From positions 1,774,884-1,838,883 of the forward strand of contig JBFWNU010000001.1 in assembly GCA_050250895.1 (NCBI GenBank): 64,000 nucleotides of DNA, given 5' to 3'. Positions within the stretch are counted from its first letter, which is position 1. Every line of letters begins with the position of its first letter. Of the stretch, positions 9,295 through 23,755 are shown in pieces. The stretch is from Vulcanimicrobiota bacterium. Its GTDB lineage: Bacteria; Vulcanimicrobiota; Xenobia; Xenobiales; JADMJV01. The position numbers and the translations under genes were made by a program. The notes beneath the pieces are model-generated. The model saw nothing but the letters and a program-made list of their open reading frames with translations. It was not told the DNA's origin and did not search any database.

Positions 9295-9699
9295 ACGGCG
9301 CGAGGGCAACAGGCGCAGCACTCCACTGGCGGCCTCGCGGAGTTCGAGGCTCGAGCCGCGGGCCAGCCGCTGGCTCTGGTCTCGCAGCGACTCCCTGGCC
9401 TCCGGAGGCAAGGCGGGATAGACCAGCGGGAGCATGCGCTGCAGGGCTTTGAGGCAATGAAGCTGGGCTGCGCACTGACCGCTTTCGAGACTCTTGAGGA
9501 TGAAGAGATGGCCTCCCTCGAGTTCGAGCAAAGTGATGGCCGCGCGCAGGCCGACCCTGGGCTCGTCGAGCAGCGTCGAGAGCGCCCGCCGGGCTGCCCA
9601 CGAGCGGCTGCGGGCCAGCACTCCAAAGGCCTGACGACATGGTTGAAAACGTCGTTCGGCGCGTAAGCTGTCGGCCAAAGCGATAAATTCTGTCTTCAT
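9286..9699 (-). CDS. Hypothetical helical (HEAT-like) protein
   Basis: 137-aa ORF with SD-like GGAGGG upstream; amphipathic helices. Confidence 0.55.
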   Translation of the reverse strand: MKTEFIALADSLRAERRFQPCRQAFGVLARSRSWAARRALSTLLDEPRVGLRAAITLLELEGGHLFILKSLESGQCAAQLHCLKALQRMLPLVYPALPPEARESLRDQSQRLARGSSLELREAASGVLRLLPSRRSA

Positions 9700-9781: not shown

Positions 9782-10765
9782 TTAACTTCGCCTTGTCTCG
9801 GGACGACGCGCAAACCCTCGCCACGAGTTGCGATTGTGCCACCCGATGACCACCTCTTCGAGGCGCGAGAACCACCTGGTGAAGTCGTCCTGGGTCAGGT
9901 AGAACGCGATTTCGGGGTGGAGGTGGTCGTAGACGATGGTCTCGACCTCACGCTGGGGGAAGTCAGCCAGATACAGAATGTAGTCCTGATAGAACAGGCG
10001 CCGTTGGGGAAAGAACCGGTTCAGCGGCCGGTAGATCCCGCGCGCCAGGGCTACGATCACCCAGGCCAAGGCCCAGGCCACGGTCTTGAGCACATGGCGG
10101 GGAAGACGACTGGCCACGTGCTGACGGAAAGGGTTGACCAGATAGATGATCCAGCCGTTGTTTTCGCGACCATAGACCCAGGCCGACAAATGGCCGCCGG
10201 GCTTGACCGTATCGAGCACCGAGCGAAAGCCGCCCTCTGGGTCGGGTAGGTGGTGGAGCACGCCTACCGAGAATGCGTAGTCGAACGTGCCTGGCCGGAA
10301 GGGCAAGCGCATCAGGTCGGCTCGAACCACCTCGATGCCAGGTTGGCGACTGGTAGCCTGCCGGGCCACCTGGCTGGCCGGACCCAGATCGACCCCCACC
10401 ACCAGCCGCGCTCCGAAGCTGGCCGAAGCTAGCAGGTGTCGGCCTTTGCCGCAACCGGCGTCGAGCACCAGCTTATCGCGAAAGAAGTCGGCCTCGACGG
10501 GGCGCAGCCAGTCGAGCAACTGCTGGCGATACAAGTCGCGTTGCTCGTTGTAGTGCTGCCACTGCTCACCGAAGCTGTCAGAGACGCTCTGGCTGGCCGA
10601 GCCGACTTCGGTCAGCATCTGAGGCACGCCTTCGACCACGGGATAGCTCCGACCGCAGCGGCTGCAGTCGAGCTGACCCGATTCGAGATGATCGCCGTCA
10701 AACGAGCATTCGAGCTCGCCCCGGCAGGCTGGGCAGACGAGTATTTCGAGCATTTCGCGACGCAT
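9782..10765 (-). CDS. Class I SAM methyltransferase with N-terminal Trm112-like Zn domain
   Basis: LVCPACRGEL...CSRCGRSYPVVEGVP; VLDAGCGKG; GVLHH; KPGG. Confidence 0.88.
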   Translation of the reverse strand: MRREMLEILVCPACRGELECSFDGDHLESGQLDCSRCGRSYPVVEGVPQMLTEVGSASQSVSDSFGEQWQHYNEQRDLYRQQLLDWLRPVEADFFRDKLVLDAGCGKGRHLLASASFGARLVVGVDLGPASQVARQATSRQPGIEVVRADLMRLPFRPGTFDYAFSVGVLHHLPDPEGGFRSVLDTVKPGGHLSAWVYGRENNGWIIYLVNPFRQHVASRLPRHVLKTVAWALAWVIVALARGIYRPLNRFFPQRRLFYQDYILYLADFPQREVETIVYDHLHPEIAFYLTQDDFTRWFSRLEEVVIGWHNRNSWRGFARRPETRRS

Positions 10766-11056
10766 GGGAACTGCTTCTTGTCCAGAGATTAACATCCTGT
10801 GCATGAAAGTTTTACAGGCTGTTTACATGAAATGTGACAATACAAACACCCGCTTAAACCGATCCCTGGTATCGTCTGAGTATGGCACTGCTCGCAAACA
10901 TCGCGCAAAGCATCGACACCGAGAAGACCTGGGTGAAAATCCGGGTCGGGGCTGGACAATAGCCTTTCTCGCGTCTTTGTAACACGCTCGTAAGACCTCT
11001 AGACACCGCTTCTGTTAGGCTGAAAGAAGCCAACCACAGACATAGAGGCAGAGCAA

Positions 11057-12109
11057 ATGATTCGATTCTCCCCGGCCCAGAGCCAGATCCCCGGTACCCC
11101 AATCTCTCTCAAAGGTGCAACGCCACCCCAGGCGCAAGCCGGCCCTTCGCCCGATCAGTTCGCGGGCTCGATCGAGCCGAGCGAGCAAGCGCTAGCCCCC
11201 GAAGCTTCTAGCAGTCGCAAAGGTTTAGCGGCCGCGGGCATGTTGGCCCTGGCCGCCACCGGTCTGCTGGCCGGCTGTTCGGCCGCGAGCCCCGATACCC
11301 CGGCCGAACCTCCTTCGAGCAGCGTCAGTGTCGACATCGAACTGGCTCACTCCGAGAGCGGATTGGCCGTCGAGATCGTGCCGGTCGACGCCGGGCGCGT
11401 CGACATCCTTCGCCAAACCCAAACCTCGGAAGACGGCAAGACCACCGAGAATCTGCCCTACTCGCCCCTGGGCGTCAATCTCGGTGACGGTCTGTTCTTC
11501 GACTTCAACGGCAACCTTTCGCTGGTTCCCACCCGCGCTTTTGGCGAGGCTCATAGCGGTAGTTTCACTCGGGTCGAGATCGATCCGGCCGGGTGGAACA
11601 ACGAGACCAGCATTAGCATTCGCGACGGTCGCGTGACCGTCAATCCGCCCGGCTTTGGCAACGACACCTCCCTCGATGTGGGTCGCGACGACGTCAAAGT
11701 CGACCCACCAGGCTTCTCGAACGGCTACACCATCTCGCGCAGCGGCAATCGGACCGTCATCGACCCGCCGGGGTGGAACAACGAGATCACCATCACCCAC
11801 GGCTCGAGCGAGATTCGCGTCGACCCTCCAGGATTGGCCAACAGCACCACCATCAGCCGCTCCGAGAATCGCCTCGAGGTCGACCCCCCTGGCTGGGGTC
11901 GTGACCACACGGTGATCACCCGCAGCGGCGGCAAGATCACCATCGATCCCACCGGCTTCTGGAACAGCACCACCATCACCCAGCGCGGCAACCGGACCGA
12001 CTACGACCCGCCCGGCCTCAACAACACGACCTCGGTGACATCCCATGATACCCACACCGATGTCGACCCGCCCGGCTGGAACAACGGCACTACCATCAAC
12101 CACCGGTAG
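11057..12109 (+). CDS. Putative lipoprotein with nine ~20-aa beta-rich DPPG repeats
   Basis: Hydrophobic stretch and lipobox LAGC (Cys74); xxV/IDPPGW/FNNxTTI repeats. Confidence 0.8.
   Translation: MIRFSPAQSQIPGTPISLKGATPPQAQAGPSPDQFAGSIEPSEQALAPEASSSRKGLAAAGMLALAATGLLAGCSAASPDTPAEPPSSSVSVDIELAHSESGLAVEIVPVDAGRVDILRQTQTSEDGKTTENLPYSPLGVNLGDGLFFDFNGNLSLVPTRAFGEAHSGSFTRVEIDPAGWNNETSISIRDGRVTVNPPGFGNDTSLDVGRDDVKVDPPGFSNGYTISRSGNRTVIDPPGWNNEITITHGSSEIRVDPPGLANSTTISRSENRLEVDPPGWGRDHTVITRSGGKITIDPTGFWNSTTITQRGNRTDYDPPGLNNTTSVTSHDTHTDVDPPGWNNGTTINHR
11570..12106 (+). repeat. 60-bp-period degenerate coding repeat (9 units)
   Basis: D/N-P codons recur near 11582, 11642, 11702, 11762, 11822, 11882, 11945, 12005 and 12065. 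Confidence 0.85.
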
Positions 12110-12432
12110 CCGTGGATGAAAACCGCAAAGGCGCTGAGGCGGCAGTGCATCGCGAAGGGTGGGCGCTCGCCTTGGCGAAACCGCGGTGGGTCGCGGAGGA
12201 GTGGGCGTTCGCGATCGGGCAGCCACCGCCGTTTTGAGCATCCCGTTCGAGGTGAAAAATACTAACCCATAAATTCGCCAGGACGCTCACCCCACGCCCC
12301 CCACAACCCTCTCCGTGCCCTCCTGATCTCCGCGGTTGATTTTTCAGGCGCGCCCCACCCACACCGACCGGTGCTTCGACCACGCGCCGAGGGGGCAGTG
12401 TCGCTCGCTCGGCTCGAGCGGTGTTAGGAAGT

Positions 12433-12873
12433 TTATCCGGCCTTCTTTTCCAGACTCTCGATCCTGGCTCGCGCCTCGTCCATTTCTTGCTGCAAGCGCG
12501 CTTGTTCCAACTCCACCGCCGTAACCCGCTGGAGCTGGTCCGTGTCATGGGTTACGAGCATCTCTGTCACCTCGTCAAAACGACAGACGAAGTTGTCAAA
12601 GCGACGCTCCCCTGTGTCAATCCTTTCATTGGTGGCAATCATCACCTGATGGACGTGACCGACGCTTCGATGCATTTCGGCCAAGCCTGTCTGCGTCTGG
12701 GCCAGGGCTCTCTGCATGTCGGCCAAGCCACTTTGGGCCACCTCCAAGCCTTTTTGTAACTGGCCCACTTGCTTCTCGACCGCCTTCATTCCCTCGCTCA
12801 CGCCTCGACGTTCTTCTCGGGCGGCATGTAGTTCGGCTTGGACTTCTCGCAGCTTTTTCTCGATGGGATTCAT
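12433..12873 (-). CDS. Coiled-coil hypothetical protein
   Basis: 146-aa ORF with heptad pattern; TATACT-like -10 just upstream. Confidence 0.7.
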   Translation of the reverse strand: MNPIEKKLREVQAELHAAREERRGVSEGMKAVEKQVGQLQKGLEVAQSGLADMQRALAQTQTGLAEMHRSVGHVHQVMIATNERIDTGERRFDNFVCRFDEVTEMLVTHDTDQLQRVTAVELEQARLQQEMDEARARIESLEKKAG

Positions 12874-13030
12874 AACAGGTTTAGTATAGCGAACGTCGTC
12901 GGCCTAAAACAAGCAGACAAGTCGTGAACCTTTGTCTACGAAAAGTTCGTACAAGAACGTTGTGTTAAAGGGGTTTGCCCCGCGGGTTGGCAGTGGAATG
13001 ACTGAGCACGCCAATTTCTCCGGAGGTTCC

Positions 13031-13855
13031 ATGCCAACGCTCACTTTCGACTGCAGCCACTGGATTTCGCGCGACCGTTACCCGGTTACCGAACTCGATA
13101 GCCCGGCCGGTCAGGCTTTTCTCGAAGACTGCCGCAGCCAGTTTCGCCGGGAAGGAGTGCTCGAGCTCGAGGGCTTCGTGACCTCAGAGTGTCTTGATGC
13201 CCTGGTGGAAGAGTCGACCCGCTACGAGGCGATGGCCTTTCACAGCACCGTCACGGGCAACGCTTATCTCGACCAGGGCGACTCCAATCTGCCGGCCGAC
13301 CACGCTCGCAATCTGACCGAGACCACCACCCTGGGAGTGGTCGCCTACGACCAGCTGCCTGGCGACTCGGTGCTGCGTCGCCTTTACGAGTGGGAGCCGC
13401 TGATGAAGTTCGTGGGAGCGGTGCTCGAGTTGCCGGCCATCTATCGCTATGCCGACCCCATGGGGGCTCTCAACCTGTCGGTGATGACTGAAGGCGAATA
13501 TCTGCGCTGGCACTTCGACCAGAGCGATTTCGTCACGTCGCTGGCCATCCAGTCGGCCGAGCGCGGCGGAGCTTTCGAGTATGTGCCGGCCTTGCGCAGT
13601 GCCGATGACGAGAACTTCGAGGGGGTCAAAGCCATCCTGCAGGGTTCTCGCCAGGGGGTGGGTCTGGTGCCAACCCTGCCCGGCTCGCTGGTGCTCTTTC
13701 GGGGGCGCTACTGCCTGCATCGGGTCACTCCCATCGAGGGCTCGCGCAGCCGCTTGATCGGCTTGCTTTCTTATGACACCGAGCCCGACCGCACCGGCAC
13801 CGACCACCTGCGCCAGATCCGTTATGGGCGCACCACCCCCTACACTCAGGAGTAG
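13031..13855 (+). CDS. Fe(II)/2-oxoglutarate-dependent oxygenase, BesD/HalD-like fold, hydroxylase type (HxD)
   Basis: SD GGAGG; WHFD...GGAFEY...LHRVTP...SRLIGLLSY gives the HxD...H triad and the 2OG-binding Arg. Confidence 0.8.
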   Translation: MPTLTFDCSHWISRDRYPVTELDSPAGQAFLEDCRSQFRREGVLELEGFVTSECLDALVEESTRYEAMAFHSTVTGNAYLDQGDSNLPADHARNLTETTTLGVVAYDQLPGDSVLRRLYEWEPLMKFVGAVLELPAIYRYADPMGALNLSVMTEGEYLRWHFDQSDFVTSLAIQSAERGGAFEYVPALRSADDENFEGVKAILQGSRQGVGLVPTLPGSLVLFRGRYCLHRVTPIEGSRSRLIGLLSYDTEPDRTGTDHLRQIRYGRTTPYTQE

Positions 13856-13858
13856 CCA

Positions 13859-15328
13859 ATGCAGACCATCGAAAACCAGGCCGTGCGCGAATGGGCGCGC
13901 GGTTGGATGAACACGACCCGAGGCGGCTTCGTGGATGGGGCCTGGCTCGAGGGCGGCACGCCCCTGGCCAGCATCAATCCCGAGCACGGCCGCGAGCAGG
14001 CCCACTTTCACGCCACCACCGACCAGCAGCTCGAGCAGGCTGTGGAGGCGGCCAATCGGGCCTTTGCGAGTTGGTCCGGCCTGACCCGCAAAGACCGAGC
14101 GGCTCGCCTGCGGGCCATGGGTGAGGTGGTCCGCTCGCATCGGGCCGAACTGGCCACCCTCGAGAGCCTCGACACCGGCAAGACGTTTCGCGAAGCCTTT
14201 GAAGACGATCTGCCCGACAGTGCCGACATCTTCGACTATTACGCCGGCTGGGTCGACAAGCTGTACGGCGAGACCTGCCCGGTCGAAGAGGGCTTGGTCA
14301 ACTTCACCCGGCACGAGCCGGTGGGGGTGTGTGCCCAGATCGTTCCCTGGAACTTTCCCCTCTTGATGGCCTGCTGGAAGATTGCGCCGGCCCTGGCCAT
14401 GGGCAACACCGTGATCATCAAGCCCAGCGAGCATACCTGCATGAGCCTGGTGCGCCTGTTCGAGTTGCTCGAGGGCGTCTTGCCGGCCGGTGTGCTTAAC
14501 CTGGTGCTGGGCGACGGCCGGGTGGGCGACGCTTTGTGTCGCCACTCTCAGGTGCACAAGGTCGCTTTCACCGGCAGCACGGCCGTGGGGCGCAAAATCC
14601 TGCACGCCGCGGCCGACTCGAACCTCAAGCCCGTAAGCCTCGAACTGGGAGGCAAGTCGCCGGTGGTGATCTTCGAGGATGTCGATCTGAAGGCTTGTCT
14701 TGACCGCTGCTTTCCGGCCATGTTCAGCCACAAAGGCGAAAAATGCAGCGAGCCCACTCGCTTTCTCATCCATCGCAGCCTGTATGCGGCCGCCATCGAG
14801 GACCTGGTCGCCCGGGCCGAGGCGGTGGTCTGCGGCGACCCCTTCGACCCCCACACCCAGCAGGGACCCCAATGCCATCGCGACCACTTCGAGCGGGTGC
14901 TCGATTATATCGAGATCGGCAAAAAAGACGGCGCTCGGCTGGTGGCCGGGGGCGGTCGCCCTCAACTCGAGGGCTTTTTCGTGCGGCCCACCATCTTTGC
15001 CGATGTCACTCCCGAAATGCGCATCTTTCAGGAGGAGATCTTCGGGCCGGTGCTTTGTCTAACGCCGTTTGACCGCGAAGAAGAGGCCATCGCCCTGGCC
15101 AACGCTTCGACCTATGGCCTGGCCGCTGGCGTCTATACTCGGGACGTGTCGCGCGCCCACCGGGTGGCCAACCGCCTCGAAGCCGGCATGGTCTTTGTCA
15201 ATCGCTACGGCTGCTACGACTTCGCCAGCCCCTTCGGCGGCTTCAAGCAAAGCGGCTGGGGCAAAGAGATGGCCATCCATTCGCTGGCCAGCTATACCAG
15301 GCTCAAGTCCATCTGGATCGCCCTTTAG
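13859..15328 (+). CDS. NAD(P)-dependent aldehyde dehydrogenase (betaine/aminoaldehyde-DH-like)
   Basis: PWNFP, FTGST, ELGGKSP, catalytic Cys in GEKC, EEIFGP, PFGGFKQSG. Confidence 0.93.
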   Translation: MQTIENQAVREWARGWMNTTRGGFVDGAWLEGGTPLASINPEHGREQAHFHATTDQQLEQAVEAANRAFASWSGLTRKDRAARLRAMGEVVRSHRAELATLESLDTGKTFREAFEDDLPDSADIFDYYAGWVDKLYGETCPVEEGLVNFTRHEPVGVCAQIVPWNFPLLMACWKIAPALAMGNTVIIKPSEHTCMSLVRLFELLEGVLPAGVLNLVLGDGRVGDALCRHSQVHKVAFTGSTAVGRKILHAAADSNLKPVSLELGGKSPVVIFEDVDLKACLDRCFPAMFSHKGEKCSEPTRFLIHRSLYAAAIEDLVARAEAVVCGDPFDPHTQQGPQCHRDHFERVLDYIEIGKKDGARLVAGGGRPQLEGFFVRPTIFADVTPEMRIFQEEIFGPVLCLTPFDREEEAIALANASTYGLAAGVYTRDVSRAHRVANRLEAGMVFVNRYGCYDFASPFGGFKQSGWGKEMAIHSLASYTRLKSIWIAL

Positions 15329-16807
15329 GTGCGTCACGGCACCTTCTGGCCGCCCTTCGTCTTGTTGGTGGGGGGAGTGGTGGCCACGATGGTCGGTGGC
15401 GCCGATCTGGTGGCCCGTTTGCAGACGGCTGTGCGACTGTGCGTGGCCGGTCTGGCGCCACTTTTTATAGGTACCTCGATGGTGGCCGTGCTGGCCTGCC
15501 TGATCGTCGCTTTCTCGCCATTGGGCTCGCGTCGACTGGGCGGGCCCCAGGCCGAGCGGGTGCTTGCGCCCCTTCAGTATTTTATGGTGGCCCTGTGCAC
15601 CACCGTGGCCGTGGGCATCCTCTTCTGGGCCACGGCCGAGCCGCTCTATCACTTGAAGGCCCCCCCGCTTGGCTTGCAAGAGCATTCACCGGCGGCGGTC
15701 CGCTTTGCCATGGCCACTTTGCTGGTCCACTGGACCCTGATTCCTTACGCCATCTATGCTGTGCCGGCCGTGCTCTTCGCCCTGGTCTTCTACAACCGGG
15801 GCCTCCCCTTTCGCCTGTCCTCGTGCCTGCAGCCGCTGTTTGGGTGGAGCAGCGAGGGCTGGTTGGCCGACCTGGTCGACTCGGTCTGCCTGTTCGCGCT
15901 GGTGGCCGGCATGGCCGCCTCGCTGGGGGCCGGCATTCTCACCCTCTCGGGTGGGGTGGCCCACCTCACCGGGTTGACCAGCGCCTGGCCGATGTGGTTG
16001 GTCATCGGCCTTTTGGTGGTGGCGACCTTCGTGATTTCGGCTGCCTCGGGTCTCGAGCGCGGCATTCGCATTCTCTCGCAGGTCAACACCGTGCTTTTTC
16101 TCGCCATCATCGCCTTCGTGTTTCTGGCCGGACCCACCGCCGCCGAGGTTCGCCTGACCGCGACGGCGGTTTGGGATTTCTTGAGCGGTTTTGTGCGCCG
16201 GGGCCTGCTTCTCGATTTTGCCCCGGGTGACGCCTGGCCCATCGATTGGACTCTGTTCTACTGGTGCAACTGGCTGGCCTGGGCTCCGGTCACGGCCGTC
16301 TTTCTCGGCCGTATCTCGCGGGGCTACACGGTGCGCCAGATGCTGCTCTTTACCTGGATTTTTCCCAGTCTGTTCGTGACCGTCTGGATGGGCGTGCTGG
16401 GGGGCACCTCGGTGGCCTTTGACGCCGACGGCTCGCTCTCGAGGTTGCTGAGCGAGCAGGGCCCCGAAGCGGTCAGCTATGCCATCTTTGCGGCCATGCC
16501 GGCGGCGGGGCTGGTGATTCCGCTGTTTCTGGCCGGGGTGTTCATCTCGTACGTGACCGCGGCCGACTCCAACACCCTGGCCATGGCCGGACTTTGCTCG
16601 ACGGGCATCTCGCCCGATAGCCCCGAGCCGCCGCTCTCGCTGAAGCTGACCTGGGGGGCGGTGGTGGGGGCCGTTTCGCTGGTGATGATTTGCGGGGCCG
16701 GCATCGAAGGGGTCAAGACCCTGTCGAATCTGGGCGGGGTTCCGGCCCTCGGCTTCGAGATGCTGTGCGCGCTGGCCCTGTTGAAGCTGGTCTATGAAGA
16801 TCGTTGA
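15329..16807 (+). CDS. BCCT-family (betaine/carnitine/choline) transporter
   Basis: About 12 TM segments; LFWATAEP, HWTLIPYAIY, WTLFYWCNWLAWAP...GRISRG, TAADS. Confidence 0.9.
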   Translation: MRHGTFWPPFVLLVGGVVATMVGGADLVARLQTAVRLCVAGLAPLFIGTSMVAVLACLIVAFSPLGSRRLGGPQAERVLAPLQYFMVALCTTVAVGILFWATAEPLYHLKAPPLGLQEHSPAAVRFAMATLLVHWTLIPYAIYAVPAVLFALVFYNRGLPFRLSSCLQPLFGWSSEGWLADLVDSVCLFALVAGMAASLGAGILTLSGGVAHLTGLTSAWPMWLVIGLLVVATFVISAASGLERGIRILSQVNTVLFLAIIAFVFLAGPTAAEVRLTATAVWDFLSGFVRRGLLLDFAPGDAWPIDWTLFYWCNWLAWAPVTAVFLGRISRGYTVRQMLLFTWIFPSLFVTVWMGVLGGTSVAFDADGSLSRLLSEQGPEAVSYAIFAAMPAAGLVIPLFLAGVFISYVTAADSNTLAMAGLCSTGISPDSPEPPLSLKLTWGAVVGAVSLVMICGAGIEGVKTLSNLGGVPALGFEMLCALALLKLVYEDR

Positions 16808-17966
16808 AGTGTTGACCAGCCCGGGCTGGGGAGCCTACTACGTCGAGGACCTGGCCGCGTTGCAGGCCCGGCCCACGGCCGAAGTGGACCGTTATCTGGC
16901 CGAGCCGGTCACCCCCTCGTTTCGGCGGGTGCGCGAGCCGGCCGAAGTGCTCTCGGTGGGGTTGCGCCTCGAGGATGGTCGGGTGGCCTGGGGCGACTGC
17001 GTGGGCGTCTCTTATGGCGGCAAGGCCGGGCGCGACCCCGTCTTTCACAGCCAGGCCGCCCAGCTCCCCGAATTGGCCGGGCGCAGTTGGAGCCTCGAAC
17101 AACTGGCCGAACTCGAACTGCCTCAGGCCATCCACTATGGCCTGAGCCAGGCGCTGGTGGCCGCCCAGGCGCTGAGCTGGGGAGTGTCCCAGACCGAGGT
17201 CTGGTGCCGGCTGTTTGACCTGTCCCTGCCCAGCGCCCCGTTGCCCTTGCACGGCTCGAGCGGCAACGCACGCCAGGTCAACGCCGACAAAATGATTTTG
17301 CGCCGGCTGGCTTCGCTGCCCGCCGGCCAGGTCGACGACCTGGAGGCCCAGGTGGGCCACGATGGGCAGCTTTTGCTCGACTATGCCGACTGGCTGCGCG
17401 AGCGCCTCGAGCAACTGGGGGAGCCCGGCTATCGCCCTACCGTTCATCTCGATGTGCACGGTGCGCTGGGCCGCATCTTTGAGGATGACCAGCTGGTGAC
17501 TTTCGTGGCCCGTCTGGCCGATTCCGTGGCTCCTTATCCGCTGCGGCTCGAGAGCCTGGTGGTCGAGGCCAGCCGGCAGGCTCAGATCGAGCGGCTGGGT
17601 CGGCTGAAAGGTCGAGTGGCCGCCGAACTGGTGGTGGACGAGTGGGCCAACACCCTCGAGGACGTGATGGCCTTCGCCCAGGCCGGGGTGGTCGACATGG
17701 TCCACCTTAAGGTGCCCGACCTGGGTAGCTTGCTACACTCGTATCGCGCCGTGGAAGCCTGCCGAGGGCTGGGGGTGAAGACGTTGCTGGGCGGCAGTTG
17801 CATCGAGACCGAAGTCTCGGCCAGGGCCTGCGTGCACCTGGGGCTGGCGGCCCGACCCGATCTGTTGATGTGCAAGCCGGGCATGGGGGTCGACGAGGCC
17901 ATCGTGCTGGTCCACAACGAAATGCAGCGAACCCTGGCCGAGCTCGCCAGCGGGATGTGGCACTAG
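16794..17966 (+). CDS. Methylaspartate ammonia-lyase homolog (enolase superfamily) with divergent active site
   Basis: MKIVEVL, GDCxxVxYxGxAGRDP, HLDVHG, LRLE, LVVDEW, HLKVPDLG, GGSCxET, KPGMGVDE, NEMQR. Confidence 0.88.
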   Translation: MKIVEVLTSPGWGAYYVEDLAALQARPTAEVDRYLAEPVTPSFRRVREPAEVLSVGLRLEDGRVAWGDCVGVSYGGKAGRDPVFHSQAAQLPELAGRSWSLEQLAELELPQAIHYGLSQALVAAQALSWGVSQTEVWCRLFDLSLPSAPLPLHGSSGNARQVNADKMILRRLASLPAGQVDDLEAQVGHDGQLLLDYADWLRERLEQLGEPGYRPTVHLDVHGALGRIFEDDQLVTFVARLADSVAPYPLRLESLVVEASRQAQIERLGRLKGRVAAELVVDEWANTLEDVMAFAQAGVVDMVHLKVPDLGSLLHSYRAVEACRGLGVKTLLGGSCIETEVSARACVHLGLAARPDLLMCKPGMGVDEAIVLVHNEMQRTLAELASGMWH

Positions 17967-18796
17967 CAGTCGATGACTTGATCGAAGCCGATCTCGCCGA
18001 AGGAACGGTCGGTGCGCCGCTTGAGATCCGAGATGGCCTCGGCCAGTTCGCGGCTCACCGACGGTTTGTCGCACAGATGGTGGTAGACGGGCTGGGGCAC
18101 AGCTCGCACCAGCGGCTTGGTGGCCTCGAAGAACTCTTCGGCAGCATAGATCGAGCCGTCCTTGAGCGGGTCGGGAGGGTTGACCAGTTTGATCCAATCT
18201 ACGTCACCGATAGCCACCGGGCCGCCCACGTCCCACTCGATGTAGCGGCCGACCTGCTTGGTTTTTTTCTCCACCAGCAACTTGACCTCGGGCACATTGA
18301 CCCCTCGCCGGCTGTAGCGCCGGGCCAGATCGCCGCGCAACAACATAAATTCCCACATCGCTTCGAGGTCCTCGGAGCGACCCTGATAGACGGCCTTGCC
18401 AGCCTGGGCGGCAGCCCGGTTACGCTCGAACCAATGCGAGAGCAACACCTCGATCGTCGGCTTTTCGACATAAACCGAGCCATCATCGGTGAGCAGGTCC
18501 ATGGACAGACGCAACTCGCGAGCCACGAGGATAGCCACCGGCAAGACTTCGAGCGCGAAGAACGACGGGCGTGGCACCTGGGTCTCGAAAGCCAACCCGA
18601 TCTCGTCGTCGTTCTCGGGAGGGTAGCGCACGAAGCGACACTCTACCGAAGTGTCGACGTTACGGTAGACGATGTGGACTTCATCGCCCTGACGCCGCGG
18701 CGAAGCTAGATTTTCGATTTGCTCGAAGGTTCGGTCGAGCTCTTTGGCTGTGGGCCTTTTACCCTGAGAAGTCAGGTAAAGCAGTTCGAAGAGCAA
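17963..18796 (-). CDS. Hypothetical protein
   Basis: 277-aa ORF, TTG start with AAGGAG SD, globular composition. Confidence 0.75.
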   Translation of the reverse strand: MLFELLYLTSQGKRPTAKELDRTFEQIENLASPRRQGDEVHIVYRNVDTSVECRFVRYPPENDDEIGLAFETQVPRPSFFALEVLPVAILVARELRLSMDLLTDDGSVYVEKPTIEVLLSHWFERNRAAAQAGKAVYQGRSEDLEAMWEFMLLRGDLARRYSRRGVNVPEVKLLVEKKTKQVGRYIEWDVGGPVAIGDVDWIKLVNPPDPLKDGSIYAAEEFFEATKPLVRAVPQPVYHHLCDKPSVSRELAEAISDLKRRTDRSFGEIGFDQVIDC

Positions 18797-18934
18797 ACAG
18801 AATGCTCTCCTTCGTATTCGTATTTCCCGGACGAATGCTGTCAGAAGACTTCGTCCGCTAGCAGCGGATCCCTGCGACGTTTGGGGGACGACCCCACGGG
18901 CAAAATATCAGGTGACATCAAGACAGGAGTAACC

Positions 18935-20245
18935 ATGGCTCGCAAAAAGAAAGCCTCGACCGGCGAACGAGTCGTCATCGTTGACGGCGTAAGAACTCCC
19001 TTCGTTAAAGCCTACACCGACTTCAAAGACATGACGACCGTGGATCTGGCCAAGACGGCCACCCGCGAGTTGCTCGAGCGCACCGAACTCGACCCCGAAG
19101 AAATCGACGAGGTCATCATGGGCTGCGTCCTGCCGTCGGTGCACGCCCCTAACCTGGCTCGCGAAGTGGTGCTTGCCCTGGGTTTGCCCGCCCGTATCGG
19201 TGGCTTCACCCTGGGCCGGGCCTGCGCTTCCAGCGCTCAAGCGGTCATCACCGCGGCCGAGGGCATCCTGGCCGGAGAATACAGCGTGGTCATCGCCGGT
19301 GGCGCCGAGTCGATGTCGAACGTTCCCGTTCCCTACTCGAAGAACGTGGTCGATTCGCTGATGGCCCTGCAGAAAGCCAAGACCATTCCGGGCCGGCTCA
19401 AAGCCTTGACCAGCATCAACCTCGACGCCCTGTTGCCCACGCCGCCCTCCATCGCCGAGTCGGCCACCGGCAAGACCATGGGGCAACACGCCGAGATGAT
19501 GGCGCGCAAGAACAAAATCAGCCGCACCGCTCAGGACGAGTTGGCCCTGGCCAGTCATCAGCGGGCCGCCGCCGCCGCCGAGGCCGGCAAGACGGGGGAA
19601 GAGGTGGTCACCGTCTACCCCGCCCCGGCTTTCTCGCCCGTCGACAACGACAACTTCGTGCGCGGCGATACCAGCCTCGAGAAGCTGGGTGAACTCAAGC
19701 CGGCTTTCGACAAACGCTACGGCACTCTGACCGCCGGCAACTCGAGCGGCCTCACCGATGGTGCCGCCGTGGTGCTGGTGATGTCCGAGAGCAAGGCCAA
19801 AGAACTCGGCTTCGAGCCGTTGGCGGTGGTCAGGTCCTGGTCGACCTGCTCGCTCGACCCGGCCGATCAGTTGCTGCTCGGACCGGCCCTGGCTATACCC
19901 GAGGCGCTCGACAAAGCTGGTCTGGGCCTGGAAGAGATGGATTTGATCGATCTGCACGAGGCTTTCGCCGCTCAGGTGTTATCGGTCACCCAGGCGCTCG
20001 AATCAGTCGACTTCGCCCGTGAGCGGCTGGGTCGCGACGAGCCGGTCGGCAAAATCGACCGCGAGAAACTCAACGTCAACGGGGGCTCCATTGCCCTGGG
20101 TCATCCGTTCGGAGCCACCGGGGCCCGCATGATCCTGATGATGGCCAAAGAACTCAAGCGCCGCAAGGCCAAATACGCCTGCCTGTCGCTATGTGCTGCT
20201 GGAGGGATGGGAACCGCCCTCATTCTGGAAGGAATGGAGAACTAA
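18935..20245 (+). CDS. fadI: 3-ketoacyl-CoA thiolase (FadI type)
   Basis: RACAS catalytic Cys, HEAFAAQ, GGSIALGHPFGATG, LCAAGG; SD AGGAG. Confidence 0.9.
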   Translation: MARKKKASTGERVVIVDGVRTPFVKAYTDFKDMTTVDLAKTATRELLERTELDPEEIDEVIMGCVLPSVHAPNLAREVVLALGLPARIGGFTLGRACASSAQAVITAAEGILAGEYSVVIAGGAESMSNVPVPYSKNVVDSLMALQKAKTIPGRLKALTSINLDALLPTPPSIAESATGKTMGQHAEMMARKNKISRTAQDELALASHQRAAAAAEAGKTGEEVVTVYPAPAFSPVDNDNFVRGDTSLEKLGELKPAFDKRYGTLTAGNSSGLTDGAAVVLVMSESKAKELGFEPLAVVRSWSTCSLDPADQLLLGPALAIPEALDKAGLGLEEMDLIDLHEAFAAQVLSVTQALESVDFARERLGRDEPVGKIDREKLNVNGGSIALGHPFGATGARMILMMAKELKRRKAKYACLSLCAAGGMGTALILEGMEN

Positions 20246-20246
20246 G

Positions 20247-22397
20247 ATGACCGTCAAGGAAAAGCCTACCGCCACTGTTCTGGAGATCGACGAGCGGGGC
20301 GTGGCCCGGCTGGTGCTCGATACCCCCGGCAGCCGCTTCAATATCATCAGCCCTGATGTCTTCCGCGAACTCAACGACCGTTTCGAAGACCTGGCCAACG
20401 ACTCGCGGGTGCGGGCTCTGTTGATCGTCAGCGGCAAGAGTGACAATTTCGTGGCCGGCGCCGACATCAAGACGCTGGCCACCATTACCACCCCCGAAGA
20501 GGGAATGGACATGAGCCTGGCCGCTCAGGGTGTCTTCAATCGGCTCGAGCAACTACCGTTCCCCAAGCTGTGCGCGATTCACGGCGTGTGCCTGGGGGGC
20601 GGCCTGGAGATGGCCCTCGCCACCGACTACCGCCTGGTCTCGGATTCAGACTCGACCCAGCTGGCCTTGCCCGAAGTGCAGATCGGGCTCATTCCTGGAG
20701 CCGGCGGAACCCAGCGTCTGCCCCGTTTGATCGGGCTGCCCGACGCCCTCCAGATGATCCTGACCGGCAAGAAAGTCCGGGCCAGGCAGGCCTTGAAAAA
20801 GGGTCTGGCCGACGAACTCGTGCCGGCCGACATCCTCGAGGAGCGGGCCCTCGAGGCGGCCCTGGAGCTGGCCGACAAAAAGGGTATGGCTCACGACCTC
20901 ATCGAGGGCCGGCAGAAGGGCCTGGCCTCGCGGGTGGCCGAGTCTTTCGGCGTGCGCAACGCCATCTACGCTCAGGCCAAAGCCGACCTTAAAGCCAAGA
21001 CGGGCGGTCACTATCCTGCCCCCTTCAAGGCTCTCGAGTCGGCCAAGACGGCCGTCCGCAAAGACCTCAAGGAAGGTCTCGAGCTCGAAGCCAGGCTGTT
21101 TGGCGAGGCTGCCGCCACCCCCGAGTGCAAGTCGTTGATGAACATCTTCAACGGTACCACCTCGTTGAAGTCCGACAGTGGGCTGCCCGAGAAATCCAAG
21201 GCCGAGCCTCGCCCCGTCAAGCGCATCGCCGTGCTGGGTGGAGGGCTGATGGGTTCGGGTATCGCCACCGTGCTGGCCGATGTCGGTTACACCGTGCGGG
21301 TCAAGGATGTGAGCAAAGAGACTCTCTCAAAGACTCTCAAATACGCCTGGAAGGTCTTCGATAGGAAGGTGCAGCGTAAGCACATGCGGCCCTACGACCG
21401 CGACCTTCGGATGGCTCGCATCAGCCCGACCGTGGAATACACCGGCTTTGGTAAGTCCGACATCGTGATCGAGGCCGTGTTCGAAGACATCGGCCTCAAG
21501 CATCGGGTGCTGGCCGAGGTCGAGGCGGCCGGCAACGACGAGACGATCTTCGCTACCAACACCTCGTCGCTGCCCATCGGCGAGATCGCCAAAGGCGCCA
21601 AGCGGCCCCAAAACGTGATCGGAATGCACTTCTTCTCGCCGGTCGAGAAGATGCAATTAGTCGAGGTCATCGTGACCGATCAGACGGCCGACTGGGTGAC
21701 GGCCACCACCGTCAAACTGGCCAAGAAGATGAAAAAGCACGTCATCGTGGTCGGGGATGGAGCCGGCTTCTATACCTCGCGCGTGCTGGCCGCCTTCTGT
21801 GCCGAGGCGGTGCGGGTGCTCTACGACGGAGCGGGAGTGGCCGAGATCGACAAAGCCATCCACTCCATGGGCTTCCCGGTGGGTCCCATGATTTTGATGG
21901 ATGAGGTCGGCATCGACGTGGTGTCGAAGGTGATGAAGATCATGATGGAGGCCTTCCCTGGACGCTTCGACGCTCCCGACGGCTGGGAGAAGCTGGTCGA
22001 GGGCCGCCAGGGCAAGAAGAACGGCAAGGGCTTTTACACCTATCGCGGCAAGAACAAGGACGTCGACGTCTCGATCTATCAACACCTGCCCGGCGGCACT
22101 AAGCGCAAGAGCTTCTCGGCCGACGAGATGCAGCAGCGTTGCATGTTCGCCTTCCTGAACGAGTCGGCTCTGTGCCTGCAAGAGAAGATCCTGCGTTCGC
22201 CGCGCGATGGCGACATCGGAGCCATCTTCGGCCTGGGCTTTCCGCCGTTTTTGGGCGGTCCGTTCCACTACATGGACCATCTCGGCATCGGTGAGGTGGT
22301 AGCCACCCTCAAGCGCCTGCAAGACCAGCACGGCGACTTCTTCAAGCCGGCCGAGATCCTCGAGAAGATGGCCAAGAAGGGCGAAACGTTCTATTAA
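20247..22397 (+). CDS. fadJ: Fatty-acid oxidation complex alpha subunit (enoyl-CoA hydratase/3-hydroxyacyl-CoA dehydrogenase)
   Basis: FVAGADI, CLGGGLE, LPEVQIG, GGGLMG, NTSSLPI, MHFFSPV, GLGFPPFLGGPF. Confidence 0.92.
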   Translation: MTVKEKPTATVLEIDERGVARLVLDTPGSRFNIISPDVFRELNDRFEDLANDSRVRALLIVSGKSDNFVAGADIKTLATITTPEEGMDMSLAAQGVFNRLEQLPFPKLCAIHGVCLGGGLEMALATDYRLVSDSDSTQLALPEVQIGLIPGAGGTQRLPRLIGLPDALQMILTGKKVRARQALKKGLADELVPADILEERALEAALELADKKGMAHDLIEGRQKGLASRVAESFGVRNAIYAQAKADLKAKTGGHYPAPFKALESAKTAVRKDLKEGLELEARLFGEAAATPECKSLMNIFNGTTSLKSDSGLPEKSKAEPRPVKRIAVLGGGLMGSGIATVLADVGYTVRVKDVSKETLSKTLKYAWKVFDRKVQRKHMRPYDRDLRMARISPTVEYTGFGKSDIVIEAVFEDIGLKHRVLAEVEAAGNDETIFATNTSSLPIGEIAKGAKRPQNVIGMHFFSPVEKMQLVEVIVTDQTADWVTATTVKLAKKMKKHVIVVGDGAGFYTSRVLAAFCAEAVRVLYDGAGVAEIDKAIHSMGFPVGPMILMDEVGIDVVSKVMKIMMEAFPGRFDAPDGWEKLVEGRQGKKNGKGFYTYRGKNKDVDVSIYQHLPGGTKRKSFSADEMQQRCMFAFLNESALCLQEKILRSPRDGDIGAIFGLGFPPFLGGPFHYMDHLGIGEVVATLKRLQDQHGDFFKPAEILEKMAKKGETFY

Positions 22398-23755
22398 TGT
22401 ATCTCGAGCGCTTCTATGACGATAGCCTGGCCCAGGCCAGCTATCTGGTGGGGTGTCAGGCCACGGGCGAGGCTATCGTCATCGACCCGCCCCGCCACGT
22501 GGAGCCTCATCTTGAACGGGCCAAGGCCCAGGGGCTATCCATCGTCGCCGTAACCGAGACCCACATTCATGCCGACTTCGTGTCGGGGACCCGCGAATTG
22601 GCCTCGCGTTGCGGCGCTCGGATGATTCTCTCGGATGAAGGAGACGCCAACTGGAAATACCAGTTTGTCGGGCCCGACGACCGGCTGGTCAAGGATGGCG
22701 ATGTCATCCAGATTGGCAACCTCACCCTCGAGGTGATGCACACGCCGGGCCACACCCCCGAGCATATCATCTTCTTGCTCACCGATCATCCGGCCACCAG
22801 CCAACCGCTCGGAGCCTTCACCGGAGACTTCGTCTTTGTGGGCGATGTGGGCCGTCCCGACCTGCTCGAGAAGGCGGCCGGAGTGGCCAACACCATGGAG
22901 CAGGGCGCTCGCGACCTGTATGCCTCGCTGCAACGCTTTGCCAAGCAGCCCGACCATCTGCAAGTCTGGCCCGCCCATGGCGCCGGCTCGGCTTGCGGCA
23001 AGGCGCTGGGAGCGGTGCCTCAATCGGTCCTGGGCTACGAAAAGATCGCTAACTGGGCCTTCCGATGTAAGACCGAAGAGGAGTTCGTGGCCAGGATTCT
23101 CGACGGACAGCCCGAGCCTCCTCACTATTTCGCCGAGATGAAACGGGTGAACAAGGTTGGGCCGGTCCTGCTCCAGGAGCTGGCCGAACCCGCCAAGCTG
23201 TCCGGCCCGCAACTGGCCGAGAAGCTAGAAGAGGACGAACTGGTCATCGACCTGCGTGGAGCCGAGGCGTTCGCAGCCGGCCATCTCAAAGGAGCCATCT
23301 TCCTGCCGCCGGTGGGCCTGGCTCGTTGGGCGGGCTGGGTGTTGCCTTACGGCCCACCGCTCTTTCTGCTGACCGAGGCTGACCAGGATGTCGATTCTAT
23401 CGTGCGAGCCTTTCGGTCCATCGGTCTCGATCGCATCGCCGGCCTTAGCCAGGAGCTTTCTGGGCCCACCGTAGCCAGTCGCCGGGTCAAACCCGAGCAG
23501 TTGACATCGACCGAGGGATTGCTCGACATCCGGGGATTGTCCGAGTGGAACGCCGGCCACGCCGAGGGCGCCAAGCACCTTCACCTGGGCAAATTGACCG
23601 GCAGTCTCGAAGAGATTCCTGAAAGTCCCACCCTCTACTGCGGGTCGGGCTTACGCTCCTTGATCGGTTCGAGCCTGCTCGAGCGGGCCGGGAAGCAAAC
23701 CACCGATGTCATCGGAGGCTTCGCGGCCATGCGAAGCCTGGTCGCCACGGCCTAG
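22397..23755 (+). CDS. MBL-fold persulfide dioxygenase-rhodanese fusion (CstB/Blh-like)
   Basis: THIHADF, HTPGHTPEH, GDVGRPDL, PAHGAGSACG, two rhodanese-like domains (YCGSGLRS). Confidence 0.85.
   Translation: MYLERFYDDSLAQASYLVGCQATGEAIVIDPPRHVEPHLERAKAQGLSIVAVTETHIHADFVSGTRELASRCGARMILSDEGDANWKYQFVGPDDRLVKDGDVIQIGNLTLEVMHTPGHTPEHIIFLLTDHPATSQPLGAFTGDFVFVGDVGRPDLLEKAAGVANTMEQGARDLYASLQRFAKQPDHLQVWPAHGAGSACGKALGAVPQSVLGYEKIANWAFRCKTEEEFVARILDGQPEPPHYFAEMKRVNKVGPVLLQELAEPAKLSGPQLAEKLEEDELVIDLRGAEAFAAGHLKGAIFLPPVGLARWAGWVLPYGPPLFLLTEADQDVDSIVRAFRSIGLDRIAGLSQELSGPTVASRRVKPEQLTSTEGLLDIRGLSEWNAGHAEGAKHLHLGKLTGSLEEIPESPTLYCGSGLRSLIGSSLLERAGKQTTDVIGGFAAMRSLVATA

Follow-up and report, generated by a model that had tools for sequence, protein, structure and literature searches.

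A conserved operon joining a BesD/HalD-like oxygenase to remodelled C-N lyases, with a predicted role in the breakdown of quaternary amines

Introduction

A 64,000-nucleotide stretch of the genome of a Vulcanimicrobiota bacterium (assembly GCA_050250895.1, contig JBFWNU010000001.1, positions 1,774,884 to 1,838,883; hereafter the window) carries four adjoining genes that encode a BesD/HalD-like Fe(II)/2-oxoglutarate oxygenase (gene 1), an aldehyde dehydrogenase (ALDH; gene 2), a BCCT-family carrier (gene 3) and a homologue of methylaspartate ammonia-lyase (MAL; gene 4) (Table 1). We read these four genes as one catabolic operon, conserved and uncharacterised. From the active sites of its lyases and from gene context we consider it likely that the operon serves to take in a quaternary amine, probably an osmolyte, and to convert it, by way of an N-methylated aspartate, into fumarate and a methylamine. 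The narrower version, in which homoserine betaine is imported and trimethylamine (TMA) is set free, is put forward tentatively and may well be wrong in its particulars.

Observed directly are the gene identities, the conservation of the module, the loss of amine-binding residues in two lyase scaffolds that keep their carboxylate sites, and the exchange of one importer for another. We infer which substrate is used, which carbon the oxygenase attacks and which group leaves, as we do every step past the gene identities. The novelty likely lies in new substrate specificities inside known enzyme families and in a new pathway.

Conservation of the Four-Gene Module

The genes follow one another on the + strand with spacings of 3 nt and 0 nt and a 14-nt overlap in the open reading frame (ORF) map of the window. 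This agrees with a sequence-only reading of the same DNA, which had noticed four tightly coupled genes and taken them for a module in which an imported onium compound is hydroxylated, oxidised to a carboxylate and split by the MAL homologue. Co-occurrence across taxa, which that reading had set as a check, is seen as synteny in both genome and metagenome loci, and the module looks catabolic. A scan of genome_contigs, limited to one genome for each species, gave 80 MAL loci, five of which carry the S/A73-S172-H329-L356 signature of the lyase described below (L021, L025, L026, L030 and L032, labelled as Bdellovibrionota, Myxococcota, Pseudomonadota or "bacterium" metagenome-assembled genomes, MAGs). 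All five adjoin a BCCT gene, and an ALDH and a HalD-like gene are also present wherever the contig extends far enough. The BCCT/ALDH/oxygenase set occurs at none of the 55 loci with a canonical MAL signature and at none of the 16 loci of an Anaerolineae type. A metagenome scan with the oxygenase alignment likewise returned 80 loci, and the eight that have a MAL-like gene have ALDH in 8 of 8 cases and BCCT in 5 of 8. The module is found only with the remodelled lyase signature, so that context and signature coincide, and since the same set returns in unrelated MAGs and metagenome contigs the arrangement goes beyond chance.

Among 61 genomes (the source genome, G000, and 60 relatives) the MAL-like gene is in none of the 15 from the same family; nine genomes from another family of the same order have MAL copies at 38-42% identity, eight with the canonical signature and one truncated. 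Gene 1 is single copy in G000. A 301-genome sample of the window's phylum holds a close oxygenase homologue in G000 only and three others at 35-39% identity, hence the module is patchy in that phylum.

A Methylaspartate Ammonia-Lyase Fold with an Altered Amine Site

Gene 4 matches MAAL_C (PF07476, 260.4 bits) and MAAL_N (PF05034, 109.8 bits) and, at 361.6 bits, exceeds the 286.15 equivalog cut-off of TIGR01502 (EC 4.3.1.2); its relatives are named "methylaspartate ammonia-lyase" in their sources. Aligned to the solved CtMAL and CaMAL chains, and numbered as in CtMAL, it reads S73, H170, S172, A194, D238, E273, D307, H329, K331, L356, S360, C361 and M384. The Mg ligands D238, E273 and D307, the general base K331 and the alpha-carboxylate site (T360 as Ser, and C361; S335 and C336 of gene 4) are kept, whereas seven positions are altered (Q73S, Q172S, H194A, Q329H, F170H, Y356L and L384M). 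In MAL, Q172 and, through a water, Q73 hold the substrate amino group, H194 and Q329 serve the enolate, T360 and C361 the C1 carboxylate, and L384, F170 and Y356 form the methyl pocket (PMC7241714, partial text). The pattern extends beyond the window: in all 13 module-linked MAL-like proteins (that of the window and 12 others) D238, E273, D307, K331, S360 and C361 are invariant, position 73 is S, A or V, position 172 is S (M once), Gln stands at neither, and position 194 is H, A or Q.

Judged by these replacements in the amine site and methyl pocket, gene 4 is not an ordinary methylaspartase, as the sequence-only reading had suspected. It resembles canonical MAL in fold, Pfam domains, ~40% identity, Mg ligands, base and the T360/C361 contacts, and this retention makes it very likely that the same enolate-based anti-elimination beside a carboxylate takes place. 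It differs in its operon, which holds a transporter, an oxygenase and an ALDH rather than a glutamate fermentation or methylaspartate-cycle context. Glutamate mutase, the absence of which had been remarked upon earlier, gave no match in G000 (9.5 Mb, 99.64% complete) for its E subunit (PF06368); the 14 control genomes gave none above the cut-off, which leaves the search with no positive control, and the S subunit was not searched. G000 has no further MAL homologue except a weak enolase-superfamily match. The sequence-only reading had named as fatal a lack of synteny elsewhere or an ordinary methylaspartase paired with the mutase; what was found is synteny, a lyase out of the ordinary and no mutase E.

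A single change, Q73A, lets MAL take alkylamines and produce N-substituted aspartates, and EDDS lyase is a natural amine-lyase of the aspartase superfamily that works on N-substituted aspartates (PMC7586795, partial text). By analogy the lyases of the module resemble natural equivalents of MAL-Q73A and EDDS lyase: loss of Gln73 opened MAL to alkylamines in the engineered enzyme (PMC7586795, partial text), and gene 4 naturally has Ser73. The literature searched, part of it as partial text, yielded no description of a natural MAL with an opened amine pocket.

An Unrelated Aspartase-Like Lyase in the Same Slot

The most frequent partner of the oxygenase in the metagenome loci is a Lyase_1 protein (Table 1). 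Its nearest match is aspartate ammonia-lyase (314-459 bits to NF008909, the cut-off of which is 510; 228 bits to AspB 1J3U), with fumarase as its second-best profile, and at ~390-430 aa it lacks the C-terminal part of the profile. Every readable copy has, in AspB numbering, T101 replaced by I, V or F, N142 by A or S and H188 by C; T187, the GSS loop and N326 are always kept, and K324 is kept except for a Q in L105. T101 is, we presume, among the residues of AspB that contact the amine. N142 and H188 of AspB touch the amine, and T187, M321, K324 and N326 make its alpha-carboxylate pocket (PMC11744663, partial text). The aspartase-like partner is thus like AspB and AspA in its SS loop, T187, N326 and, mostly, K324, and unlike them in the three replacements and its shorter length; its family is absent from the window. 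It also differs from EDDS lyase, the amine site of which is hydrophilic (PMC7586795, partial text), whereas that of the aspartase-like partners is apolar (I/A/C).

Two unrelated fumarate-forming C-N lyases therefore occupy one slot, both keeping their carboxylate sites and both losing polar amine contacts, which points to an aspartate with a bulkier and less polar N substituent. This paired loss in two scaffolds is the strongest evidence on the lyase substrate. Retention of S335 and C336 in gene 4, together with a replacement enzyme that keeps T187, K324 and N326, argues for an aspartate-type dicarboxylate. The sequence-only reading had offered beta-alanine betaine or dimethylsulfoniopropionate (DMSP) as the compound cleaved; both are monocarboxylates, and the alpha-carboxylate sites kept in both lyase types speak against them.

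Among the 45 aspartase-type loci ALDH is present in 12 and BCCT in 2. Ten of the 12 loci with neither lyase nor formaldehyde-activating enzyme (Fae) are truncated no more than ~0.8 kb from the oxygenase; the other two, L147 and L156, show no partner in spite of long flanks.

Several further features accompany the aspartase-type loci. In one metagenome clade a Cys-rich esterase-like gene with a GWSNG motif lies directly upstream of the oxygenase/aspartase-like pair (for example L110:6854-7903; the loci are L104, L106, L109-L111, L113, L115-L120, L122, L124, L125, L128, L130 and L137). Its only match is a sub-threshold alpha/beta-hydrolase one (PF10503, 20.7 bits against a cut-off of 23) and two copies compared are 85% identical; these loci being closely related to each other, a functional link is weakly supported. 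The window ORF at 11057..12109, considered as its counterpart, proved unrelated on comparison. A TetR-family regulator precedes the oxygenase in aspartase-type modules with ALDH (L126 and L133), and in L126 the ALDH is followed, at 11822-13408, by a 528-aa ORF that matches no Pfam family and could encode an unrecognised transporter. An apparent cluster of ABC transporters at nine loci was discarded as an alternative frame over the ALDH gene.

The Oxygenase and its Pairing with Fae

Gene 1 has a single Pfam match, to HalD (PF23169, 44.7 bits, cut-off 26). Its iron triad is H161/D163/H230 (in WHFDQ and CLHRV), invariant across 46 aligned homologues, and an HxD...H rather than HxG/A...H triad marks it as of the hydroxylase/oxygenase type and not a halogenase. 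An AF2 model of gene 1 (pLDDT 94) was compared by Foldseek, and the best matches are HalD, HalB, BesD and a lysine hydroxylase at 14-20% identity (TM 0.65-0.74 when normalised to the length of the target and 0.57-0.67 to that of the query); all of the top 40 ranks are members of the BesD/HalD family. R83 of HalB, the Arg that binds the substrate carboxylate in a family that acts on C4 or C5 of an Arg-anchored alpha-amino acid (PMC10041140, partial text), is matched to R93 of gene 1 by a phmmer alignment of low identity. Gene 1 resembles the BesD/HalD halogenases and hydroxylases in its best fold match and its Pfam match, and perhaps in R93, and departs from them in sequence, in its HxD triad and in its partners, which are a lyase, an ALDH and a transporter rather than biosynthetic genes. 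None of its 561 homologues bears a functional name; the ESM Atlas gave nothing beyond "HalD/BesD family" clusters, and a cluster look-up of 10 homologues gave no product names.

At 15 of the 80 metagenome loci the oxygenase adjoins Fae, with no lyase or ALDH (Table 1). In two examples the Fae protein reaches 146 and 142 bits, above the 118 that TIGR03126 requires. Fae-linked and lyase-linked oxygenases differ in consensus at three columns only, all conservative, and a quick tree of the oxygenases puts most Fae loci in a single clade that sits among clades linked to the aspartase-like lyase. Fae occurs with a lyase at 0 of these 15 loci and with ALDH at 0 of the 80. The pairing implies that the Fae-linked oxygenase clade, at least, would produce formaldehyde. 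An apparent oxygenase-Fae fusion in L171 is an artefact of an overlapping frame; oxygenase and Fae are separate genes there, side by side.

Aldehyde Dehydrogenase and Importers

Gene 2 matches PF00171 (Aldedh) at 556.8 bits. Its best score among 42 ALDH models is to betaine-aldehyde dehydrogenase (BADH; TIGR01804, 521.5 bits, below the 668.6 cut-off). Full-length ALDHs of other module loci score 606-693 bits to gene 2 and those beside canonical-signature MAL genes 228-274 bits; BCCT proteins of MAL-type and aspartase-type modules score 380-460 bits. From these scores both ALDH and BCCT look orthologous between the two types of module.

Gene 3 covers positions 2-484 of the 485 of PF02028 (BCCT, 385.5 bits) and falls below the cut-off of every NCBIfam BCCT equivalog. 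The solved carriers that score best against it are a trimethylamine transporter (188 bits), BetP (185), the choline carrier BetT (172), DddT (162) and CaiT (145); at about 140-188 bits the solved carriers of TMA, betaine, choline, DMSP and carnitine are roughly equidistant, with no clear winner. At L099 an ABC ATPase and an OpuAC-domain permease stand right after the ALDH, in the place of the BCCT gene. On its domain content this OpuAC-type importer adds another class of uptake system for solutes of the betaine type.

A Sister Family Beside MttB

The closest sequence relatives of gene 4 are a ~460-aa family of Anaerolineae/Chloroflexota at 40-50% identity, with the signature A/E73, H170, Q172, H194, mostly Q329 and mostly F356. 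In 15 of its 16 loci a full-length non-pyrrolysine MttB-family gene (no in-frame stop) lies within 7 kb, often in two copies; an MttB gene is near canonical MAL at 1 of 55 loci (L077). Non-pyrrolysine MttB homologues are methyltransferases that act on quaternary amines, among them glycine betaine, proline betaine and carnitine, and their position beside the sister family ties the whole non-canonical MAL clade to quaternary-amine metabolism. The 16 loci also hold a Zn alcohol dehydrogenase (5), a molybdopterin aldehyde oxidoreductase (6) and a conserved 261-aa protein without Pfam match (7), and as gene sets they resemble an anaerobic pathway for quaternary amines with a C-N lyase among its enzymes. 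By analogy they would be an oxygen-free parallel, in which a quaternary amine is oxidised from alcohol through aldehyde to acid. The MttB enzymes indicate a shared substrate class; they are corrinoid-dependent and oxygen-independent, and they are not in the window or in the aerobic module.

Another set of MAL genes also follows an ALDH. In L043, L053 and L063 (Paraburkholderia, Bradyrhizobium) the MAL is near-canonical, with Q73, Q172 and H194 kept and with Y170 and V356. L043 has a GMC oxidoreductase upstream of the ALDH/MAL pair and a family III CoA-transferase and an HpcH/citrate-lyase-like aldolase downstream; the annotated flanks of L063 are a LysR and an AsnC regulator, and wider flanks are annotated for L043 only. 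These genes suggest a mesaconate/citramalyl-CoA type of route unrelated to glutamate mutase.

Proposed Pathway

We propose that the BCCT carrier would import homoserine betaine (N,N,N-trimethylhomoserine), either free or freed from betaine lipids. The BesD-like oxygenase would turn its C4 carbinol, or the C4 ether carbon of the deacylated head group of diacylglyceryltrimethylhomoserine (DGTS), into an aldehyde, which the BADH-like ALDH would convert to N,N,N-trimethylaspartate ("aspartate betaine"). The MAL-like lyase, using its Mg site and Lys base, would then take the C3 proton, expel TMA and leave fumarate. Homoserine betaine is the simplest natural precursor of an N-methylated aspartate. 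It is reported to be the main compatible solute of Trichodesmium (bioRxiv 10.1101/2021.03.10.434842, partial text) and a dissolved reef metabolite (PMC11166142, partial text). The outline of the sequence-only reading, oxidation to a carboxylate followed by elimination of TMA, stays as the reading that we favour; the substrates that it named are disfavoured, and its sequence of hydroxylation and oxidation also needs an alcohol-to-aldehyde step, which only the Fe/2-oxoglutarate enzyme could provide. Its general idea holds, and the lyase substrates that it specified are probably wrong. Taken as a whole, the pathway above is the best explanation that we have, and we hold it with rather less than even confidence.

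Related systems lend some likeness. The CntAB carnitine oxygenase operon, CutC and ergothionase, the last of which eliminates TMA from an alpha-N-trimethyl amino acid, likewise combine a BCCT-type importer, an oxygenase or lyase and an ALDH on the way to TMA and a C4 acid. They differ in belonging to the Rieske, glycyl-radical and aromatic-amino-acid-lyase families, none of which is of the enolase or aspartase superfamily.

Several points weigh against this pathway. ALDH is not obligatory, given that 33 of the 45 aspartase-type loci have none adjacent, and to explain its absence by sequential oxidation by the oxygenase or by an ALDH encoded elsewhere is ad hoc. The amine pocket of the MAL-like enzyme, as read from its residues, is small and polar (Ser/His) and has no aromatic cage, and the H194 variation (H/A/Q) is unexplained. 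Gene 2 falls short of the BADH equivalog cut-off. The presence of Fae suggests formaldehyde release and hence N-demethylation rather than C4 oxidation. Sequence itself names no substrate, and we know of no report of aspartate betaine as a natural metabolite.

Alternative Explanations

The alternative that survives best makes the oxygenase an oxidative N-demethylase. An aspartate-type betaine would yield N,N-dimethyl- or N-methyl-aspartate and formaldehyde, the lyase would free dimethylamine or methylamine together with fumarate, and the ALDH (or Fae elsewhere) would remove the formaldehyde, unless the role of the ALDH is to turn an aldehyde precursor into the betaine acid. A reverse, "amine-capture" form would have the lyase join an imported methylamine to fumarate and the oxygenase demethylate the product to aspartate. 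In favour of this alternative are a true Fae by NCBIfam adjoining the oxygenase, the like conserved residues of Fae-linked and lyase-linked oxygenases and the mutual absence of Fae and ALDH, expected of alternative formaldehyde sinks; it also parallels the pair of an MttB demethylase and a MAL-like enzyme in Anaerolineae, the oxygenase being the aerobic analogue of MttB, and the best solved relative of the BCCT carrier is a trimethylamine transporter, by 3 bits only. The ALDH profile, however, is BADH-like (betaine/amino-aldehyde) and not that of a known formaldehyde dehydrogenase type, and the lack of polar amine contacts in the aspartase-like partners (I/A/C) better suits a leaving group free of N-H, namely TMA. 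Fae and lyase never occur together, and most Fae loci, being one clade, may reflect a single evolutionary event; the amine-capture direction is by our own estimate thermodynamically weak at environmental amine levels. Between oxidation at C4 and removal of an N-methyl group the sequence does not decide, and we regard demethylation as unlikely on balance.

Ectoine is a quite improbable substrate. Hydroxylation at C6 and ring opening would give N-acetimidoyl-aspartate semialdehyde, the ALDH N-acetimidoyl-aspartate, and the lyase fumarate and acetamidine. Ectoine is a BCCT/Opu substrate and is aspartate-derived, all four genes would be used, and an N-substituted aspartate suits the enlarged amine pockets. 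An amidinium leaving group should nevertheless favour polar or acidic contacts, and the aspartase-like pocket turns apolar; ALDH would be obligatory, yet most aspartase-type loci have none nearby; and neither the Fae link nor the MttB link of the sister family is accounted for.

For a monocarboxylate onium acid, that is beta-alanine betaine or DMSP split into acrylate and TMA or dimethyl sulfide, the chance is slight. Onium importers are present and enolase-superfamily chemistry allows the reaction in principle, but the alpha-carboxylate residues are kept in both scaffolds (S360/C361; T187/K324/N326), and all members of the aspartase superfamily that we know of use succinyl-type dicarboxylates. 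Redirecting AspB to monocarboxylates, moreover, needed its alpha-carboxylate positions turned hydrophobic (PMC11744663, partial text).

Carnitine is no more probable. Hydroxylation at C4 would give TMA and malate semialdehyde, the ALDH would form malate and the lyase would dehydrate it to fumarate, a use for all four genes that mirrors an Acinetobacter operon of CntAB, malic-semialdehyde dehydrogenase and BCCT and that fits fumarase as the second-best profile of the aspartase-like partner. L-carnitine would, by our own stereochemical reasoning, yield D-malate, whose configuration does not suit enzymes that descend from lyases of L-aspartate; a hydroxyl leaving group needs no apolar, enlarged pocket, ALDH would again be obligatory, and the Fae and MttB links are unexplained.

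That gene 4 is an ordinary methylaspartate ammonia-lyase with unrelated neighbours is hardly credible, despite its score above the TIGR01502 cut-off and the name of its relatives, since its amine-binding and methyl-pocket residues are replaced, its context is conserved across phyla and bound to the signature, and glutamate mutase E was not found in a 99.6% complete genome (in a search with no positive control).

Implications

If the homoserine betaine pathway holds, the operon would serve as a gene marker of a new route by which betaines of algae and cyanobacteria become volatile methylamines. It would also be an unrecognised aerobic source of TMA and fumarate, and Chloroflexota would have its anaerobic, MttB-linked counterpart. 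A 561-member "hypothetical" Fe/2-oxoglutarate family would gain a function, and two natural C-N lyase scaffolds would join those whose amine pockets engineers opened by mutation (PMC7586795, partial text). It is a doubtful but attractive possibility that the enolase and aspartase superfamilies have their first trimethylamine-lyases in the MAL-like enzyme and its aspartase-like stand-ins (a Hofmann-type elimination from aspartate betaine) and that, with the oxygenase and ALDH, these lyases make up the route, so far missing, by which homoserine betaine and the DGTS head group are broken down. Whatever the substrate, the double non-orthologous displacement of lyase and importer is a clean handle on the chemistry.

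A literature search, with subscription journals and supplements outside its range, did not find BCCT, ALDH, aspartate ammonia-lyase and 2-oxoglutarate together in one paper, nor a paper that combines N-methylaspartate, methylamine and a lyase, nor one with both MttB and methylaspartate ammonia-lyase. For homoserine betaine it found, in partial texts, occurrence or synthesis and not breakdown. A haloarchaeal genome comparison naming both methylaspartate ammonia-lyase and BCCT was judged unrelated from its partial text. DUF1989 (PF09347), a proxy for trimethylamine N-oxide demethylase, has no match in G000, a result that says nothing on TMA use.

Operon Boundaries and Neighbouring Genes

The open frame of gene 1 reaches back to 12932, and the ribosome-binding site GGAGG at 13021-13025, 5' of the ATG at 13031, sets its length as that in Table 1. 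The gene upstream of the leader is divergent and the one downstream, at 17963..18796, convergent. Across 12300..18900 an Rfam scan found no riboswitch or RNA leader (the sole match being a chance snoRNA inside the BCCT gene, E 0.22), a promoter scan found 0 promoter-like sites and no sigma-70-like consensus, and a terminator scan found 8 terminator-like sites where 5.7 would be expected, with none of them at the end of the operon.

Table 1. Genes of the window operon, partners of the oxygenase in metagenome loci, and loci of the sister lyase family.
Feature	Position or loci	Strand	Details
Gene 1, BesD/HalD-fold Fe(II)/2-oxoglutarate oxygenase	13031..13855	+	274 aa; PF23169
Gene 2, NAD(P)-dependent aldehyde dehydrogenase (ALDH)	13859..15328	+	489 aa; PF00171; best profile betaine-aldehyde dehydrogenase
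Gene 3, BCCT-family secondary carrier	15329..16807	+	GTG start, 492 aa; PF02028
Gene 4, MAL-like enolase-superfamily lyase, amine/alkyl pockets remodelled	16794..17966	+	390 aa; PF07476, PF05034
Intergenic leader, presumed promoter region	12874..13030	+	between divergent 12433..12873 (-) and gene 1
Partner: MAL-like lyase	8 of 80 metagenome oxygenase loci		
Partner: Lyase_1 protein	45 of 80 metagenome oxygenase loci		directly downstream of oxygenase
Partner: Fae (formaldehyde-activating enzyme)	15 of 80 metagenome oxygenase loci		L136, L141, L146, L149, L153, L154, L160, L161, L163, L165-L167, L169-L171
No MAL-like, Lyase_1 or Fae partner	12 of 80 metagenome oxygenase loci		
Sister MAL-like family	L013-L016, L018-L020, L022-L024, L027-L029, L031, L033		MAL-like gene at ~8001-9400 in most (genome_contigs)

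Further upstream, the ORF at 11057..12109 (+) encodes a 350-aa product without Pfam or NCBIfam match and is unrelated to the module at other loci; BLAST output shows "PPG(W/F)(N/S)N" segments every ~30-40 residues, and the product may be a repeat-containing secreted or surface protein. Past the operon, 18719..23755 (+) holds a fadI-like thiolase, fadJ (877.7 bits against a cut-off of 869) and a metallo-beta-lactamase/rhodanese fusion resembling persulfide dioxygenase. These genes and a Trm112-domain/methyltransferase fusion at 9782..10804 (-) appear ordinary.

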